Shown here piece by piece: positions 1 through 8,135 of a stretch of DNA of 8,135 bases. The position numbers and the translations under genes were made by a program. The notes beneath the pieces are model-generated. The model saw only the letters and a program-made list of their open reading frames with translations. It was not told where the DNA came from and did no database searches. Source of the DNA: a virus. Lineage: Duplodnaviria; Heunggongvirae; Uroviricota; Caudoviricetes. Each line of letters begins with the position of its first letter. Within the stretch, counting starts at the first letter, position 1. The stretch lies in IMG/VR virus record IMGVR_UViG_2630968558_000004; one strand, 5' to 3'.

Positions 1-170
1 TGTTGCCCTGGAAAGTTGATCTGAGCTCTCAGTAAATATCAATACGGTTCTGACGAGCCGCTTACCAAAAGCTGAACTGGATTCTGTCCTTGGTGTGCAG
101 GACTTATGGGATCTGCTGGAAATAATTCATGTGGATGCCCATAACGAACAGGTGATACAGGAGAACAGAA

Positions 171-2192
171 ATGGCGCAGGTACTTGATGAGCTTGTTCTG
201 TCCCTCGGGATTGATGACAGGGACTTTACTGCCGGGGAACAGGCAGTACATGCTGCCCTTAACCGGCTCACGACGGTGATGGAAGGTGTCGCTGACACAT
301 TCAGTCAGGGACAGAAGAAAACCAGTGAATCACTGGAAAAAACCGGAAAAGATGCTGATAAAACAGCCCGTCGAATGGAAGATGCCGGGAAACGGGCGGC
401 CCGTTTTTTTTCAGGGATCCGTAGCGAGATTCTGGCTCTTGCGGGTGTCAGTCTGACGCTGGGGGGGCTGAAGAACCTGGTAACAGGTTTTGCCCGTGAC
501 CTGAACCGTCTGTCCGTGGAATCCGATGCTTTTGGCATGAAGGCCAGAAATCTGGACGGATGGCTACGGGCTGCGCGGGCAAATAATGTTGATGAAGGGG
601 AAATGTCTGGGGCATTTTCCCGGCTTGCAAATGCAAAAGCGGCCTTCAGAGCCGGAAGGTCCTTTGATCCTGTGTTACAGGATTTGTTTCAGGTTGCAGC
701 CAGGGCGGGCATTAGTGTTGATTTAAATACTGACAGCACTGAAACCATCATGCGCAAGCTGGCGGTTATTTTTCCGCGACTGACAAAGTCCGAACAAACT
801 GCCTACGGCAACGCGCTGGGCTTCAGTTATGCCGGACAGCAGTTTCTTGGCTCCGGTCATGCGCTGAAAGATGTGGACGAATTTACTTCCCGTTCGCAGG
901 TTACGCCGGGGCGTATAGCGCTGGCCCGTAAGCTACGAAAAGAGCTTGTTGAGCTCGATCAGACCTGGTCCGGCATCGGGATGACGCTTAGCACCGCGTT
1001 GATGCCGTACGCGCTGAAGCTCAGCCACTGGCTGGAGACACTCGGTGACTGGATGCAGCAACATCCGGAGGAAGTGAACAGTTTTATCACCACATTTCTG
1101 AATGACGTTGAGTCAGTGGCCTCCCTGGCGAATAAGGCTGCCGGAGAACTGGGGGGCTGGCAGAATGTCATTATTACGCTGATCGGGCTGAAAGTGGCGT
1201 CATGGGTGCGGGGGCTGACAAAAGCCCTCAGTGGCCCCGGAGGCCTTCTTTTTGCGATAACGGCGCTTTACCCGGTTGTTGACGGATTACTGACATCCAT
1301 TGTTGGCAGGAAAAATAAGGACTGGCTGGATTTACAAGGTTTTTTCTGGGCTTCAGACGGGACTTTCTTTTTCAATAAGAAAGAGATGGAGACGTATCAG
1401 ACAAAACTGGATGCCGGAGAAAAGCCTGGCAACATCACCCGGGCACAATCATCCACAGTATGGCAGCAGGGAATGCTGGATACTCAGGCTTCTCAGGCAA
1501 CCGGGAGGGAAGCAGCCTTCGGTGAATCCTGGCTACAGGGTATGCGTGCGACGCAGGAAAAACTCGGTAATGCCATGCAAAACCGCCAGCGACCGACGAA
1601 GACCGGGGAAGCCCTGTTAGGCTGGCTGCAACCGAAACTGTCTCAACTGGAGGAAAAATATAACCTGCCGCCCGGACTGCTGCGCAGCGTTGCGATCACC
1701 GAATCCCGTGGTAATCAGTTTGCCGTCTCACCTGCTGGTGCGATGGGACTGTTTCAGTTTATGCCGCAGACGGCCAGGGAATTTGGTCTGAGGGGGAACG
1801 ACCCCTTTGATCCCGAAAAATCCGCAGATGCTGCCGCGAGAAAACTGGGTGGTCTGATGCGTTTTTTTCATGGCGATCTGGCTAAGGCTCTGGCGGCATA
1901 TAACTGGGGAGAGGGAAATGTTCAGCGTAAGGGACTGGCTGCTGCTCCGGAGGAGACCCGCAACTATATTCCGCGGGTGCTGGCGAACCTGCCTTATCCG
2001 GGTGCGGCAATGGCCATACGGTCGCGCCATCCTGCGCCTGTATCGCAGCCCACCGTAACGGAAACCACGCATATCGGGACGCTGAATGTCACCACAACTT
2101 CAGACAATGTGAAGGGGATCACCGATGATGCACGTCAGCGTATAAGGAATTCGGCGCTTGTGTCGGTTTATTCCAGCGGGGTAACAGGATGA
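171..2192 (+). CDS. Tail tape measure-like protein with C-terminal lytic transglycosylase (SLT) domain
   Basis: 673-aa ORF; AGGAGA at 159-164, 6 nt before the only available ATG (in-frame stop at 153-155). N-terminal two-thirds is Ala/Leu/Arg-rich with hydrophobic stretches (e.g. GGWQNVIITLIGLKVASWV, LLFAITALYPVVDGLL), typical of tape measure proteins. C-terminal part carries SLT-like motifs AITESRG, GLFQFMP and AAYNWGEG. Sits immediately upstream of baseplate genes. Family assignment is from motif recall, not a search. Confidence 0.8.
   Translation: MAQVLDELVLSLGIDDRDFTAGEQAVHAALNRLTTVMEGVADTFSQGQKKTSESLEKTGKDADKTARRMEDAGKRAARFFSGIRSEILALAGVSLTLGGLKNLVTGFARDLNRLSVESDAFGMKARNLDGWLRAARANNVDEGEMSGAFSRLANAKAAFRAGRSFDPVLQDLFQVAARAGISVDLNTDSTETIMRKLAVIFPRLTKSEQTAYGNALGFSYAGQQFLGSGHALKDVDEFTSRSQVTPGRIALARKLRKELVELDQTWSGIGMTLSTALMPYALKLSHWLETLGDWMQQHPEEVNSFITTFLNDVESVASLANKAAGELGGWQNVIITLIGLKVASWVRGLTKALSGPGGLLFAITALYPVVDGLLTSIVGRKNKDWLDLQGFFWASDGTFFFNKKEMETYQTKLDAGEKPGNITRAQSSTVWQQGMLDTQASQATGREAAFGESWLQGMRATQEKLGNAMQNRQRPTKTGEALLGWLQPKLSQLEEKYNLPPGLLRSVAITESRGNQFAVSPAGAMGLFQFMPQTAREFGLRGNDPFDPEKSADAAARKLGGLMRFFHGDLAKALAAYNWGEGNVQRKGLAAAPEETRNYIPRVLANLPYPGAAMAIRSRHPAPVSQPTVTETTHIGTLNVTTTSDNVKGITDDARQRIRNSALVSVYSSGVTG
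1614..1934 (+). other. SLT / family-1 lytic transglycosylase-like domain inside the tape measure ORF
   Basis: Translated segment LLGWLQ...AITESRGNQFAVSPAGAMGLFQFMPQTAREFG...LAAYNWGEGNVQRKG; putative catalytic Glu is codon 511 (gaa at 1701-1703) in an E-S context. Boundaries are approximate. Confidence 0.75.
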
Positions 2193-2899
2193 GTTTTTCT
2201 TTCGATAATTTTTCCCTGAATAACTTTTCACTCAATGAAAGTAATGTACTGAGTGCCGTTCGTGGTGGCGGGGTACTGGGACTCATTAACAGTGTACTGG
2301 CACCATCATTCGGTATTTATTACGCAGTAAATGATCCGGCAGGTGCTTACCAGAAGGGGGAAAAACCTTTTTCCCCGGATTCTTTTGTTGCCGTTGAGGT
2401 GGGCGCGGAGGCTTCTGTTTCCACCGTCCCCGTGGAGCAGGGGGCTTATACCACCTTTAATAAAATCCAGAGATCGCAGGAACTGCATGTGACTTTCACT
2501 GTAGAGGGCTGGACGGCGTTTTCCGGGGTTGTCCCGAATCTGACAAATTTTTCCACCACCTCGCGGACGAATGTGCTGGAAACGCTTGAAAGGATGCGTA
2601 CCACGGCAGGACTCTACGATATTGAGACGCCGGACAAGACATGGACATCCTGCGACCTTGTGAAATATGACTACCGAATGCGAAGTAATAATGGTCCGAC
2701 CTTACTGACGGTTACTGCGGTATTTCAGACCGTAATGAATACAGGAGAGGTGTCAGTGGGAAGTACGGATAGGTCGTCTCCCACGGACAACGATAAAGCA
2801 AAAGGGGCCGCATCGGTTAAAACGCAGCCAGTTACGGCGTCGGTGACACAACCGTCAGACGCTGACAGACGAAGTGCCACGAACAGGGAGATCACCTGA
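2189..2899 (+). CDS. Hypothetical tail/baseplate-associated protein (236 aa), function unassigned
   Basis: ATG at 2189 overlaps the tape measure stop (ATGA, 2189-2192), implying translational coupling. N-terminus has a tandem [10 protein letters not shown] peptide repeat; the C-terminal ~45 aa are Ser/Thr/Asp-rich low complexity. No motif I can assign to a family; structural role inferred from position only. Confidence 0.7.
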
Positions 2900-3201
2900 T
2901 GCTGGAAATTGTTTTATCTCCCGTTAAAGCCCAGCAGTTTACGGTGACACTGGGCGCTCAGGTCTGCACCATTCGCCTGAATCAGCGTACTACGGGGATG
3001 TATATCGATATCATTGTTAATGGTGAACCGTGCCTGTATGGCGTGCTGTGTCTGAATAATAACCGGATTGTCCGGTACGGATACCTGCCGTTTCAGGGGG
3101 ACCTGTTTTTTACCGACACGGAGGGGAATAGTGACCCTGACTGGCGGGGGCTCGGATCCCGGTACCGGCTCTACTGGCTGTTACCTGAGGAACTGATATG
3201 A
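2899..3201 (+). CDS. Hypothetical small protein (100 aa), function unassigned
   Basis: ATG at 2899 overlaps the upstream TGA (TGATG, 2897-2901); GGGAG at 2886-2890. Three Cys residues. No recognisable motif. Position between tape measure and spike suggests a baseplate-hub accessory, but that is inference. Confidence 0.65.
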
Positions 3202-4067
3202 GCTACAGACAACGTAAAATAACGGTGGAGTTCACTCTTTCAGACGGGCGAACGTTTGGTAATGGCCAGGGCAATATGCTGACCATTACCGACGCAAGCT
3301 GTTTTGCCAGTATTGCCGTATATGGAGGGGTGGCTGGTACACAAATCACGCTGTATATCTGGGGAATGTCACCGGCGCATATGACGAATTTAAGCTGGCG
3401 CGGTGTGTGGCGACAGGAGCAGAGTACCGCAAATAAAATGCGGCTGTGGGCCGACGGGCGGCTTATTTTTGAAGGTGATATTACTGATGCATACGCCGAC
3501 TACAACCAGGCACCGGATATTCCGCTCATTCTGACAGGACAGATTCATTTTAATCTGCGTAATCAGACGGCGGCAGATTTCAGCGCAAAGGGCGATGTTG
3601 CGGTTGCAGATATTATCCGTGCGCTGGCGTCAACTGTCGGGCTTGGATTTGAAAACCAGGGGGTCAGCCGCAGTCTGTCTGACCCGCATTTTTCCGGTAA
3701 TGTTGTACAACAAATGCTGGATGTCGCTTCAGCCGCCGATATTAACATTGATCTGGGGAATGTGGAGAAAGTCACCATCTGGCCGAAAGGGCAGAACCGG
3801 AATATTCCGCCGGTACTGATTTCGCCGGATCACGGACTGACTGGCTATCCGGTTTACACCATGACCGGACTCAGCGCCACCACGATATTCTGCCCCGATC
3901 TCTTTACTGGCAGGCCAGCGCATCTGGAATCGTCACTGCCTGATATGACGGGCGATTATACGATCACAGGGGTGATACACACCATTACTTCGCGAACCGT
4001 GGGCGGTCCGTGGAGTTCCAACTGTACCATGATGAGGGCTGAAGAAAATGGCACAACCACTCAGTAA
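3198..4067 (+). CDS. Hypothetical tail/baseplate protein (289 aa), possible hub-region component
   Basis: ATG at 3198 overlaps the upstream stop (ATGA, 3198-3201); GAGGA at 3187-3191. 3' end overlaps the next gene by 20 nt. No motif I can confidently assign. Confidence 0.7.
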
Positions 4068-4725
4068 CCCGACAGACGTGAACAGCGAAATCAATGCACA
4101 GGACTTTATGCTGCGGCAGTTTCTCGGACGTCATGCGTTTATCACTCTGGGACGGGTGGTAGCCGTGGAAGAGGAATTTATTGAGGCCCGACCGATGGTA
4201 ATGGGCGTTGCAGCAGACGGTTCCCCGGTTGAACATGAGGTGATTTATAACATTCCCGTATGGCGACTACAGGGGGGCGGTAATGCGGTGATTATGCCGC
4301 CACATGTGGGGGATATCGGTTTTCTTGCCATCTGCGATCGGGATATCAGTGCGGTAAAAGCCACGCGTCAGGCTGCGATGCCGGGATCAAAGCGTACCCA
4401 TAATTATGCTGATGCCATCTGGCTGGGTGGCGTGCTCAACGGTGATCCCGTCCAGTTTGTGGTATTTGATGACAACCAGATACGGATTGTATCTCCCTGG
4501 AAAGTGGAGATATCCGCGCCTGAGGGTGTGATTAATGCGCCGAAAAGCTTCACCGTTAACTCACCACAAATTGCGCTGAACGGCGATACCTCCGTCAGTA
4601 AGGGGCTTAACGTTACCGGGCAGTCCAGGCTTTCCGGCGGTTCGAACATCGGGGGTATTGATTTTGGAAACCACGTTCACGGCGGCGTTGAGTCCGGCGG
4701 CTCAACCACGCAGGGACCCCGGTAA
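4048..4725 (+). CDS. Baseplate spike / baseplate assembly protein V-like (gpV family)
   Basis: 225-aa ORF. The C-terminus GIDFGNHVHGGVESGGSTTQGPR matches the His-x-His...Gly-Gly-x-Thr...Pro tail I recall from P2 gpV-type spike proteins. Position immediately upstream of the small protein and J-like gene matches the V-W-J order of P2/Mu-type baseplates. Confidence 0.75.
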   Translation: MAQPLSNPTDVNSEINAQDFMLRQFLGRHAFITLGRVVAVEEEFIEARPMVMGVAADGSPVEHEVIYNIPVWRLQGGGNAVIMPPHVGDIGFLAICDRDISAVKATRQAAMPGSKRTHNYADAIWLGGVLNGDPVQFVVFDDNQIRIVSPWKVEISAPEGVINAPKSFTVNSPQIALNGDTSVSKGLNVTGQSRLSGGSNIGGIDFGNHVHGGVESGGSTTQGPR

Positions 4726-4737
4726 ACAGGAGAAAAC

Positions 4738-5094
4738 ATGCAGTCACGATCATTTCTTCTTGACACCGGGACATGGGATATCCTGCTTGATGATACCGGA
4801 AATCTTGCCATTACTGATAATCCCCATGCGGTAGCTCAGGATGTGGCGTGTGCGTGCAGTACTTTTCTGGGGGAGTGCTGGTACGACTCAACGGCTGGCA
4901 TACCTTACTGGCCACGCATCCTCGGACACTGGCCCGGCACACAACTGGTGAATGCCACTCTGCAACAGGAAGCACTTAAACTGCCGACCGTGAGCGCCGC
5001 TGTCTGCCAGGTCACAGCTGATCAAACCCGGACAGTAACAGGTGTGCTGCGTATTACAGATACCAATAATGACATTTTTACGGTACTGCTATGA
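4738..5094 (+). CDS. Small baseplate protein at the gpW/gp25 position (118 aa); family uncertain
   Basis: AGGAGA at 4728-4733, 4 nt before the ATG. Stop overlaps the start of the J-like gene (ATGA, 5091-5094). Assigned by synteny only; I do not see the Glu-Pro-Arg signature I associate, from memory, with gp25/gpW-like proteins. Confidence 0.65.
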   Translation: MQSRSFLLDTGTWDILLDDTGNLAITDNPHAVAQDVACACSTFLGECWYDSTAGIPYWPRILGHWPGTQLVNATLQQEALKLPTVSAAVCQVTADQTRTVTGVLRITDTNNDIFTVLL

Positions 5095-6332
5095 GTGAAA
5101 ATAAATCTTTTTCTACCGCAGTGCCCGCTGTACAGATTTCGGATAGCGGGCTGAATGTGCCGGATGAAGCGGATATTCTGAGCGGCAGGCTTGCTGATTT
5201 TTCGGCGGCGCTGGGCGGGGCCATGAGTACCAGTCTGAGCAGTCCGCAGGGACAACTTGCATCCAGCGAAAGCGCCATTATTGCGGATAAAAACGATCAG
5301 TTGCTGTATATCGTTAACCAGATCAACCCTGACTTTTCCAGTGGTCGCTTTCAGGATGCAATAGGCAGGATTTATTTCCTGGAGCGCCGCGGGGCCACAG
5401 GTACGACAGTAACAGCGACCTGTACCGGGCTGGTTGGCACGCTGATCCCGGCGGGCAGTATGGCGCAGGATGAGGCCGGTTATAAGTATGTCAGTCAGTC
5501 AGACGTCACTATCGGCGCATCAGGGCAGGTTGATGCGGTATTTCTGAATTTGTCCACCGGCCCCGTCGGCTGTTCTGTGGGGACGCTGAATAAAATTTAT
5601 AAGGCAATACCTGGCTGGTCAGGTGTCACTAACGCCAGTGCCGGTGTGCCGGGCAGCGATGAGGAAACCCGTGCGGACTTTGAAAACCGCCGACGCGATT
5701 CAGTTGCCCGTAATGCCCGGAATATTCTGGAAGCCATCCGGGGTGAAATACTCTCCACGATAGAAAACGTGGTGGATGTTTACGTCACCCATAATCCGAA
5801 AAAAACAGAACAAAAAGCCGGAGTCAGTCAGTATCCATTAACACCCGGTTCGCTTTATGTTGGCGTGTACGGCGGCAGCCCGGCAGATATCGCGGCGGCC
5901 ATCTGGCGTAAGGCTCCGCCGGGTATTGATATGAATGGCAACACAACGTTCACTGTTGCAGATAAGGAGTACGATCCGCCGTATCCTGAATACGTGATCA
6001 GCTGGCAGACACTTAAACCCGTCAGTCTGCATGTCAGTGTGACGCTGAAAAAAAGTGACTACCTGCCTTCAGATATTACCCGACAGGTACAGCAATCCGT
6101 GCTGGACGCATTTAATGGTACAGATGGTGGTCTGCGGGCAAGGGTTGCCTCTGTTGTCTCTGCCGGGCGCTACTATGCCGGCATTTACAAAACCTATCCG
6201 GAACATATTGATATTCTGGGCCTTACTGTGAGCCGTGACGGTTCGTCATGGACAACGGCTGTCACTTTCGGGATAGATGAGATTCCGGTTCTGGATGTGT
6301 CGGATATCAGTGTGAAACTCCAGGAGGCATAA
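5091..6332 (+). CDS. Baseplate J-like protein (gpJ / Mu gp47 / T4 gp6 class)
   Basis: 413-aa ORF, translationally coupled to the upstream gene. Contains GSDEETRADFENRRRDSV, resembling the acidic SD.D..R.R segment recalled from P2 gpJ-type proteins. Size and position (after V and the small protein, before the gpI-position gene and tail fiber) fit. Confidence 0.8.
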   Translation: MSENKSFSTAVPAVQISDSGLNVPDEADILSGRLADFSAALGGAMSTSLSSPQGQLASSESAIIADKNDQLLYIVNQINPDFSSGRFQDAIGRIYFLERRGATGTTVTATCTGLVGTLIPAGSMAQDEAGYKYVSQSDVTIGASGQVDAVFLNLSTGPVGCSVGTLNKIYKAIPGWSGVTNASAGVPGSDEETRADFENRRRDSVARNARNILEAIRGEILSTIENVVDVYVTHNPKKTEQKAGVSQYPLTPGSLYVGVYGGSPADIAAAIWRKAPPGIDMNGNTTFTVADKEYDPPYPEYVISWQTLKPVSLHVSVTLKKSDYLPSDITRQVQQSVLDAFNGTDGGLRARVASVVSAGRYYAGIYKTYPEHIDILGLTVSRDGSSWTTAVTFGIDEIPVLDVSDISVKLQEA

Positions 6333-6333
6333 C

Positions 6334-6939
6334 GTGCAGAATGTGGCTGCCACTGTGCTTGCGCAGTATGCTGCCAGCCCCCGACTCAATGCCCTCATTA
6401 ACAGCTTTAACGCAGCGCTTTCCCCCGACAGTTTTATCAGTGATTTTTATGGTCTTATCTGGAACATCGATACCGCAGAAAAGTACGGTCTTGATGTCTG
6501 GGGGAAGATTGTGGGTGTCAGTCGCCGGCTGACGGTAAAGGACGATTTTAATTACCTGGGCTTCAGCGAGTCCAGGATGGACACCCCGGTAATGGATGAT
6601 CCCCGTCCGTTTAATCAGGCACCGTTTTACAACGGAAAATCGGATACCCGGACTGTTGACCTGTCTGATGCTGTATACCGGCGGCTGATACTGATGAAAG
6701 CCATGTCGAACATTACTGACTGTTCCGTTCCGGATATTAACCGGATGCTGAGATTTATGTTCGGAAAAAAACGCCGGGCTTATGTTCTGAATAATGGTGG
6801 ATTGAGGATGAGTTACATCTTTGAGTCCGCGCTCTCGTTGGCAGAACTGGCGATTATCCAGTCGTCGGGTGCACTGCCATCCCCGCCGGGTGTTTATGTT
6901 TCAGTGGTTTTAAAGGAGCCCCGTAATGAAGGCCAGTGA
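6334..6939 (+). CDS. Baseplate/tail protein at the gpI position (201 aa), possibly DUF2612-like
   Basis: Starts at GTG 6334 with AGGAGG at 6322-6327, 6 nt upstream and 1 nt after the J-like stop (6330-6332). Overlaps the tail fiber start by 14 nt. Family call is from synteny; the DUF name is a recollection, not a verified match. Confidence 0.7.
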
Positions 6940-8135
6940 TAACCCCCGCCAGCTGACGGTCCCCTTTGCGAGTACCGGAGATAAAAACCGTATCCCGGAC
7001 AAGGCGACACAGCAGACCAGAGAGAGCGGTAATGCTGCGTATGATTCAGGTTTTCCTCCGGTGACCATGACAGCGGTCTCAGCGGGAGGTATACCGCCAC
7101 ACGGCAAGGATTTTAACGGTCTGATGTACGATATTACCGCAGCAATACGGTTCGCCCAGGCTGGCGGTTTGTACACGTATAATGCCGGTTTTGCGGGGGC
7201 CATTGGTGGATATGCAAAAGGAGCCATTCTCGCCGGAGTCGCAACAACAGCGGTCTGGCTGAATACCACAGACGATAACCTGACCGATCCTGAAGGCTCC
7301 GACAGTGCGGGCTGGGTAAATCTTCTTGAGGATCCGAAAAGGATATTCCTGCGGCAGAAGAACAATCTGTCAGACCTTCAGAATAAAGGGACGGCACGGG
7401 ATAATCTTCAGGTTTACAGTAAAGAGCAGTCAGATCAACGCTATGTTCATCGGGAAGGCGATAAAATAACCGGAGAGCTGAAAATCCGTGGTGTTAATGC
7501 GCTGAGGATTTTCAACGACGCTTTTGGTCTTATTTTTCGTCGTTCGGAAGAGTGTCTGCACCTCATTCCTACCTGGGAAAATCAGGGCGAGAATGGCGAT
7601 ATTGGTCCACTTCGTCCGTTCACTATTAATCTGCGGACGGGTGAAATATCCATGTCGCATAAAGTGTCTGTTGGCGGTGGTTTGCAGGTCAATGGTGCGC
7701 TGGGTATCGGCGTTCAGAACGCGCTGGGCGGAAATTCAATTGCTTTCGGGGATAACGATACCGGCCTGAAACAGAACGGCGATGGTCTGCTTGATGTTTA
7801 TGCAAATGGCCAGCGAGTATTCCGTTTTCAGAATGGTGTGACTATTGCTTTTAAGAATATTCAGGCCGGAACTGCCAGAAAATTCACGTTATCCAGCGCC
7901 AACAACTCCACGAAAAACGCAACGTTTAATTTATGGGGTAATTCATCCCGTCCCGTAGTTGCAGAGCTTGGTGATGATTCCGGCTGGCATTTCTACAGCC
8001 AGAGAAATACCGATGGCAGTATCACATTCGCTGTAAACGGACAGATGACCCCATCAAACTATGGAAATTTCGATGCCCGCTATCAGCAGCGAAATGGCGG
8101 CGTGCAGGATGTGCGTTATGGTTCCGAAATGTATT
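6926..8135 (+). CDS. Tail fiber protein, N-terminal ~403 codons (3'-truncated by window end)
   Basis: Not in the supplied ORF track. ATG at 6926 with AAGGAG at 6913-6918 (7 nt spacing); frame 2 stays open from 6926 to 8135, which I checked codon by codon. Translation begins [21 protein letters not shown]... and continues with Gly/Asn/Thr-rich segments ([41 protein letters not shown]; [43 protein letters not shown]) typical of fibre shafts. Last gene after the baseplate genes, as expected for a tail fiber. Confidence 0.8.

Follow-up and report, generated by a model that had tools for sequence, protein, structure and literature searches.

The closest described counterparts of this locus are simple contractile-tail baseplates. 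In the cyanophage Pam3 (PDB 7YFZ), gp16–24 run in the order tape measure protein, tube initiator (gp17), plug (gp18), hub (gp19), spike, sheath initiator (gp21), wedge and fibre, and in the Escherichia coli phage phi92 the tape measure protein gp134 is followed by the tube initiator gp135, the plug gp136, the hub gp137, the spike and the sheath initiator gp139 (PMC13450770). [quoted passage not shown] The plug, which the papers on Pam3 and phi92 call Ig-like (PMC9942802, PMC13450770), occurs as six copies that connect core and wedge and is freed on contraction in Pam3, E217 and phi92 (PMC9942802, PMC10329688, PMC13450770); in E217 the protein lost on contraction is gp33 (PMC10329688). In the R2 pyocin, too, the small 'glue' adaptor is encoded between initiator and hub (bioRxiv 10.64898/2026.09.14.750843).

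The window analysed here, an 8,135-nucleotide stretch of a tailed-phage record, contains three plus-strand ORFs of 236, 100 and 289 aa between a 673-aa protein and a 225-aa protein (Table 1). With a probability of about 90%, we take this to be an enterobacterial prophage locus in which the three genes encode the inner core of a simple myovirus baseplate of the Pam3/phi92/E217 type. Reading the sequence confirmed the tight coupling reported in the first-pass annotation, with overlaps ATGA (2189–2192), TGATG (2897–2901) and ATGA (3198–3201); the 289-aa ORF and the spike gene further overlap by 20 nt. Such coupling, which leaves no intergenic space, fits co-expression of parts that assemble together. 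Each of the three starts is preceded at 6–9 nt by a purine-rich, Shine-Dalgarno-like stretch (GGGGTAACAGG, AGGGAG and GAGGA, respectively), and all opposite-strand ORFs across the interval are at most 83 aa long. Full-length homologues with 37–99% identity were found in Escherichia, Salmonella, Serratia and Xenorhabdus (for the 100-aa protein, Sodalis) and in isolated phages, and the block as a whole is kept in isolated phages of Pantoea, Klebsiella, Acinetobacter, Burkholderia, Aeromonas and Xanthomonas. All three ORFs are real genes. A megablast search of a phage collection returned no close DNA relative.

Table 1. Genes of the window, with positions counted from its first nucleotide
Feature	Coordinates	Strand	Evidence
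Tape measure protein with C-terminal lytic transglycosylase (SLT) domain, 673 aa	171..2192	+	PHROG 2013 'lytic tail protein', E 1.8e-245; PHROG 2276 tape measure; Pfam SLT, residues 493-598, E 2.8e-26
Tube initiator (Dit-like baseplate protein, putative tail-tube fold), 236 aa	2189..2899	+	Pfam PF21821
Baseplate plug (adaptor, hub/tube-initiator core to wedge), 100 aa	2899..3201	+	Pfam PF22479, PHROG 349
Baseplate hub (gp27 / Mu gp44 / P2 gpD fold), 289 aa	3198..4067	+	Pfam PF22759, PHROG 196
gpV-like central spike with apex motif, 225 aa	4048..4725	+	PF18352 (spike N-terminal domain), E 4.4e-8; PF18946 GpV Apex motif, E 1.1e-5
Probable sheath initiator (gpW/gp25-like), 118 aa	4738..5094	+	PHROG 120 'baseplate wedge subunit', E 3.2e-36
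Baseplate J-like wedge protein	5091..6332	+	Pfam Baseplate_J, E 2.8e-11; PHROG 6, E 6.7e-70
DUF2612 protein	6334..6939	+	Pfam DUF2612, E 7.4e-66
Tail fibre gene, incomplete, runs off the window end	6926..8135	+	403 codons without stop; RefSeq 'phage tail fiber protein' on matching genes

The 100-aa protein, for which the first-pass annotation could name no counterpart, belongs to the plug family Pam3_gp18 (PF22479), which it matched over residues 1–94 (model positions 1–99 of 101) with 80.2 bits against a cutoff of 24.2 (E 1.7e-22), while Pam3 gp18 itself scored 73.5 bits. It also matched PHROG 349, 'virion structural protein', with an E-value of 7.8e-30. Even as a single sequence, it found the adaptors of the Pseudomonas Pbunavirus phages in a phmmer search of the PDB (Pa193 gp34, 9b45_A, E 0.006; E217 gp33, 8env_G, E 0.0072) over residues 3–94. 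In size it is close to the Pam3 plug (100 versus 106 aa).

The 289-aa protein matched the E217_GP41 family (PF22759) with 34.7 bits (cutoff 27), and PHROG 196, 'baseplate hub', over its entire length (residues 1–289, E 6.2e-64). A search of the PDB with the single sequence gave nothing significant (E 0.53), whereas a profile of its homologues recovered Pam3 gp19 (9.5e-7), phi92 gp137 (3e-4) and E217 gp41 (0.022), and hhalign assigned a 95.5% probability to the match with Pam3 gp19. The AF2 model of this protein (pLDDT 80.4, pTM 0.73) has the tube-like domains and the alpha/beta domain of the hub fold. When submitted to Foldseek, it matched the phiTE hub (E 1.7e-17, TM 0.71), E217 gp41 (TM 0.73) and Pa193 gp42 (TM 0.72), and further Mu gp44 (1wru, 9ki1_G), the R2 pyocin hub (6u5h_A), T4 gp27 and VgrG. 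Its gene immediately precedes that of the central spike, and the first-pass annotation was right that the trio stands where contractile-tail phages encode their hub. The protein is longer than the 229-aa Pam3 gp19, which aligns only to residues 76–279 of the E217_GP41 model.

The assignment of the 236-aa protein as a tube initiator is the weakest of the three. Residues 64–182 matched the Dit_like family (PF21821; model positions 2–116 of 127) with 29.2 bits, 5 bits over the cutoff of 24.2 (E 1.1e-6), as compared with 86.8 bits for Pam3 gp17; the same Pfam family was matched by 67 of the 75 family members that make up our deep profile, and an exhaustive search extended the family of the 236-aa protein to 1,618 representative clusters. 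In the PDB, the deep profile matched chains deposited as 'Tube initiator protein' from phiTE (2.1e-6), phi92 (gp135, 1.3e-4) and Bas63 (gp018, 0.048), and it aligned phi92 gp135, also 236 aa long, over nearly its full length. Against Pam3 gp17, to which the protein is barely alignable, hhalign gave a weak match with the deep profile (20% probability, E 1.1e-3) and an insignificant one with a shallow profile of 18 sequences (0.4% probability). The single sequence retrieved nothing from the PDB, and the shallow profile found no phage chain there; its matches, all to helical proteins, were judged spurious, being caused by low-complexity C-terminal tails in the homologues. The AF2 model comprises a core domain at about residues 40–182 and a predicted flexible C-terminal arm at residues 184–236, in agreement with the architecture of phi92 gp135. 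Its top Foldseek chains were tube-initiator, ripcord or tube proteins of Bas63, E217, Pa193, pyocin R2 and Pam3 (E 3.5e-6 to 1e-3), with low TM scores of 0.3–0.5, because the mean pLDDT of the model is 56 and only the core is confident (78–88). These matches agree with a tail-tube-like beta-sandwich but fall short of a good superposition. The gene lies directly 3' of the tape measure gene and 5' of the hub gene, the same position as in Pam3, phi92, Pantoea phage PA-1 and Acinetobacter phage AP22.

The order of genes in the window is identical to that of Pam3 gp16–24 and to those of PA-1 and AP22, and it is shared with phi92 from the tape measure protein to the sheath initiator. Downstream of the trio, the 118-aa protein occupies the position of Pam3 gp21 and phi92 gp139; Pfam gave no match for it, and its position together with the PHROG match makes it a probable sheath initiator. 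Located in the Pam3 gp23 slot, the DUF2612 protein may by position be a second wedge subunit. The spike gene, in addition to its Pfam domains, matched TIGR01644 (phage_P2_V) in NCBIfam below the cutoff. Despite the common order, sequence identity to Pam3 is very low (a BLASTP alignment of the two plugs spans only 32 residues, E 0.004), and the tape measure protein carries an SLT domain, unlike that of Pam3. The kinship to phi92, a large lytic phage with three sets of fibres, is so distant that only profiles detect it. In E217 and Pa193, the adaptor gene lies beside the tail-tube gene, judged by gene numbering (gp33/gp34 first), whereas here it follows the initiator gene and precedes that of the hub. 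The functional layout is the same as in P2 (gpU/gpX/gpD) and the R2 pyocin (ripcord/glue/hub), which have six initiators, six small 'glue' adaptors linking core and wedge, and a trimeric hub; however, the P2/R2 adaptor has a LysM fold and the adaptor here belongs to the Pam3_gp18 family, so that the two would be positional analogues. Phage Mu shares the hub fold and the downstream V-W-J-I type order but has two genes (gp43 and gp44) in this slot. The count is three here because, as in Pam3 and phi92, tube initiator and plug each have a gene of their own.

We considered whether the 236-aa protein could instead form an additional tube-linking ring of the ripcord type, like E217 gp37/gp38, with the hub on one side and a distinct baseplate-tube protein on the other. 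The E217 and Pa193 chains found by Foldseek (8eon_D and 8eon_A; 9b45_V and 9b45_S), which agree in length with the gp37/gp38 and gp38/gp39 ripcord pairs (PMC10329688; PMC11456595), fit this idea, and these ripcords indeed resemble the Dit-like core. However, these two Pbunaviruses have three rings of tube-like proteins (gp36 and the heterohexamer of gp37/gp38), whereas the window and its phage relatives hold a single Dit-like or tube-like gene between the tape measure and the hub. The lone protein at this place in Pam3 and phi92 is the tube initiator, which is also the name under which the chains matched by the profile were deposited. An extra ring is thus quite unlikely, and the ripcord and the tube initiator are in any case variants of one fold and position.

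Two broader alternatives fare worse. The disorder predicted for the first and last thirds of the 236-aa protein would suit a non-virion product, such as an assembly chaperone or a cargo (moron) protein that merely happens to lie in the tail operon, but homologues of all three proteins sit in cryo-EM baseplate models (PMC9942802, PMC10329688, PMC13450770), and both the translational coupling of the trio and the conservation of the block in isolated phages speak against a non-virion role for any member, which we regard as very improbable. The same models and the curated baseplate families indicate that the three proteins are probably structural, as proposed earlier from their coupling. The other alternative is that the trio represents an undescribed kind of hub module; none of its members scored above cutoff against an NCBIfam model, and the single-sequence PDB searches with the 236- and 289-aa proteins were empty or weak. 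This reading is scarcely credible, since Pfam, PHROGs, profile-to-PDB and fold searches, synteny and PGAP names all lead to described families. Of the readings considered, we therefore retain the trio as tube initiator, plug and hub.

By analogy with the homologous structures, from which we infer stoichiometry, contacts and release, the core may be assembled as follows. The 289-aa protein would assemble into a trimeric hub gripping the N-terminal helices of the gpV-like spike, likewise a trimer, with the tube-like domains of the hub arranged as a pseudo-sixfold ring. On this ring, the 236-aa Dit-like protein would stack in six copies as the tube initiator, at which polymerisation of the tail tube would begin around the tape measure protein, while the flexible C-terminal arms of the initiator extend outward. 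Six plugs, bound to these arms and to the hub periphery, would serve as docking adaptors that fix the helical bundle of each wedge, presumably built from the J-like and DUF2612 proteins, to the core. Receptor binding would then rearrange the wedge ring, upon which plug and spike would be released and the sheath would contract.

The first-pass annotation had called the three proteins unassigned, found no motif in any of them and rated them the most poorly explained part of the window, adding that clear homology of all three to hub or distal-tail proteins would make them ordinary. Such homology was looked for and found: each has a curated Pfam family above cutoff (Dit_like, Pam3_gp18 and E217_GP41), and in 98%-identical E. 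coli prophages, RefSeq/PGAP already names the homologues 'phage baseplate protein' (236 aa), 'phage baseplate plug family protein' (100 aa) and 'baseplate hub protein'. Of the checks proposed there, the remote-homology searches placed the 236- and 289-aa proteins with tube initiators and hubs, and structure prediction succeeded for the hub, whose model matches solved hubs, but for the 236-aa protein only in the core. The locus is therefore ordinary, since a core of this standard kind has already been described in several solved phage structures. Giving the trio defined structural roles matters little outside annotation; nevertheless, as far as its genes tell, the prophage carries a complete minimal baseplate of the Pam3/phi92 type, and families defined by cryo-EM since 2023 (PF21821, PF22479 and PF22759) now reach tail genes formerly left as 'hypothetical'.

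Tandem Repeats Finder reported nothing meaningful at 2100–4100. A perfect, terminator-like hairpin at 2356–2376 within the 236-aa ORF was rejected as a feature, its stability being no better than that of shuffled sequences (z −0.36) and the residues encoded there being unconserved in homologues.

The termini of the 236-aa protein differ from those of its relatives. Compared with Pam3 gp17, which has a two-helix arm, it has about 40 additional N-terminal residues and a disordered C-terminal arm. This arm is 22–35 residues shorter than in the Salmonella, Serratia and Xenorhabdus homologues (258–271 aa) and is without their long helical tail, so the mode of plug binding could differ in detail. 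That the enterobacterial initiator holds plug and wedge otherwise than by the two-helix clasp of Pam3 is an unlikely possibility; if true, the docking of the baseplate core would have a lineage-specific form here. At the other end, the N-terminus varies by indels among homologues and carries a duplicated NFSLN motif in the enterobacterial 236-aa form.

The three consecutive proteins of 236, 100 and 289 residues between the tape measure protein (TMP) and the gpV-like spike had been regarded in the first-pass annotation as unassigned. However, when Pfam calls were judged against the curated gathering scores, all three proteins scored above them: the 236-aa protein matched Dit_like (PF21821; 29.2 bits versus a gathering score of 24.2), the 100-aa protein matched 'Cyanophage baseplate Pam3 plug gp18' over its full length (PF22479; 80.2 bits, E 1.7e-22), and the 289-aa protein matched 'Baseplate hub gp41' of phage E217 (PF22759; 34.7 bits versus 27). 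PHROG searches assigned the 289-aa protein to 'baseplate hub' (PHROG 196, E 6e-64), the 100-aa protein to 'virion structural protein' (PHROG 349, E 8e-30) and the 236-aa protein to PHROG 1830 (E 8e-75), which carries no name; an NCBIfam search of the trio returned no model above cutoff. All three proteins belong to baseplate families that have been described and characterised from structures. The structural role proposed for them earlier was right, but with clear homology to known proteins they are ordinary rather than unexplained.

The ORF listing places the trio in a single operon on the + strand of the window. The three reading frames and the ATGA, TGATG and ATGA start/stop overlaps at their junctions, as the first-pass annotation had described them, were confirmed exactly by ORF coordinates and sequence inspection. 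Shine-Dalgarno-like purine runs lie 5' of all three starts, the 289-aa gene overlaps the following spike gene by 20 nt, and base composition is even throughout the region.

Features of the operon, with the matches that name them
Feature	Length (aa)	Position	Strand	Match
Tape measure protein	673	171-2192	+	PHROG 2013, E 1.8e-245; Pfam SLT, E 2.8e-26
Putative tube initiator	236	2189-2899	+	PF21821 Dit_like
Baseplate plug	100	2899-3201	+	PF22479
Baseplate hub	289	3198-4067	+	PF22759; PHROG 196
gpV-type spike with apex motif	225	4048-4725	+	Pfam
PHROG 120 protein (sheath-initiator gpW/gp25 position)	118	4738-5094	+	PHROG 120, E 3e-36
Baseplate_J protein				Pfam/PHROG
DUF2612 protein				Pfam
Tail fibre gene, running off the window end		6926-8135	+	RefSeq name of matching genes

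The SLT lytic transglycosylase domain of the TMP is C-terminal (residues 493-598), so the TMP is probably also the peptidoglycan-cutting enzyme of the tail. The 118-aa protein, despite its strong PHROG match, had no Pfam match whatever and is now the operon gene with the least Pfam and NCBIfam coverage; Pam3 gp21 reaches Pfam Sheath_initiator below cutoff only. A simple terminator-pattern scan of both strands (window 1-8135) gave 17 sites versus 7.0 ± 2.6 in shuffles, all 17 within coding sequence. Since the best + strand site (2356-2376) was no more stable than shuffled sequence, the excess is probably a compositional effect.

Among the trio, the hub was matched by several approaches. A 14-sequence hub profile searched against the PDB found Pam3 hub gp19 (9.5e-7), phi92 gp137 (3e-4) and E217 gp41 (0.022), and hhalign against gp19 gave 95.5% probability. 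The AlphaFold model was confident (pLDDT 80.4, pTM 0.73), and Foldseek matched it to the hubs of phiTE (E 1.7e-17, TM 0.71), Bas63, E217 (TM 0.73) and Pa193 (TM 0.72), with lower matches to Mu gp44, T4 gp27, and pyocin and VgrG hubs. For the plug, phmmer aligned residues 3-94 to E217 gp33 and Pa193 gp34 (E 0.006-0.007). BLASTP to Pam3 gp18 covered the first 32 residues only (E 0.004), and the link to gp18 therefore rests on the family profile, in which gp18 itself scores 73.5 bits.

The tube initiator identity is the weakest of the three assignments. Neither a single-sequence search nor a shallow profile of the 236-aa protein matched any phage chain among PDB entries. The family is large (an exhaustive representative search gathered 1,618 clusters with E ≤ 1e-3, of which 945 reach E ≤ 1e-10), and a 75-sequence profile, 67 members of which match Dit_like, found PDB chains deposited under the name 'Tube initiator protein | Dit-like phage tail protein' from phiTE (2.1e-6), phi92 (gp135, 1.3e-4) and Bas63 (gp018, 0.048). 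Pam3 gp17 is a strong Dit_like member (86.8 bits); hhalign of the family against gp17 alone was weak (E 1.1e-3, 20% probability). The AlphaFold model was poor overall (pLDDT 56), with a core (~40-72, 98-107 and 126-181) at 78-88, and Foldseek with this low-pLDDT model consistently found tube-initiator/ripcord chains of Bas63, E217, Pa193, pyocin R2, A-1(L), XM1 and Pam3, followed by siphovirus Dit and tube proteins, with TM scores of only 0.3-0.5. The protein is very probably the sole initiator rather than a ripcord-like ring, and the doubt left on the trio is restricted to this detailed role and to minor lineage-specific terminal features. Disorder is predicted at both of its termini. The N-terminus (window 2189-2320) carries a duplicated pentapeptide within a region of variable indels among homologues, where Salmonella homologues have DKFP-type repeats; compared with the 258-271-aa homologues of Salmonella, Serratia and Xenorhabdus, which have helical-looking tails, the C-terminal arm (window 2740-2899) falls short by 22-35 residues.

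The gene order of the window is that of Pam3, gene for gene: TMP gp16, tube initiator gp17, gp18, hub gp19, spike gp20, gp21, wedge gp22 and gp23, and fibre gp24. Phage phi92 has gp134 TMP, gp135 tube initiator, gp136 plug, gp137 hub, spike and gp139 sheath initiator (PMC13450770), and isolated Pantoea phage PA-1 and Acinetobacter phage AP22 carry the same block as the window. By tblastn, the hub was found in 123 and the plug in 182 phage records, including phages of Acinetobacter, Xanthomonas, Burkholderia, Ralstonia, Aeromonas, Klebsiella and others. By analogy with homologous structures, from which stoichiometry, contacts and release are taken, the 289-aa protein would be a trimeric hub, the 236-aa protein a hexameric tube initiator whose residues ~184-236, for which disorder is predicted, make up a flexible C-terminal arm, and the 100-aa protein a six-copy wedge-docking plug. 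In Pam3, assembly begins with the hub-spike complex, which is then joined by the tube initiator hexamer and six monomers of the plug; wedge heterotriplexes and sheath initiator attach last (PMC9942802). The plug homologue of E217, adaptor gp33, attaches to the last ~40 residues of tube-like gp37/gp38 and is lost along with the spike upon contraction (PMC10329688); the phi92 plug behaves likewise, and its authors term the plug a conserved myophage feature (PMC13450770).

P2 gpU, gpX and gpD fill the same three roles, and R2 pyocin ripcord, glue and hub share both roles and gene order with the trio; the P2 and R2 adaptor, however, is a LysM protein, unlike the 100-aa plug (bioRxiv 10.64898/2026.09.14.750843), and is therefore an analogue, not a demonstrated homologue. 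In Mu, one multifunctional protein integrates initiator and plug functions (PMC13450770), which explains the earlier remark that Mu has two genes at this position.

Prophages sharing 98% identity with the window DNA occur in nine out of 5,426 complete E. coli genomes (count at ≥95%, up to three matching places per genome), where PGAP names the trio 'phage baseplate protein', 'phage baseplate plug family protein' and 'baseplate hub protein'. The prophage of E. coli CFSAN029787 (NZ_CP011416.1, 4662585-4704463) directly adjoins sitABCD and is a hybrid of a Pam3/AP22-type myovirus head-tail module and a lambdoid late/lysis region (DUF1367/DUF1364/DUF1133, four tRNA genes, holin and RrrD lysozyme). 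The annotation lists its TMP orthologue as a pseudogene with a frameshift, and this copy may therefore be defective. The tail fibre gene is mosaic: very few E. coli genomes match its whole stretch, whereas from about window 7445 on ~200 genomes match at 80-95% identity (best about 92-93%), in genes whose products are labelled tail-collar fibre or hypothetical proteins. This far wider matching points to exchange of the distal, putatively receptor-binding part.
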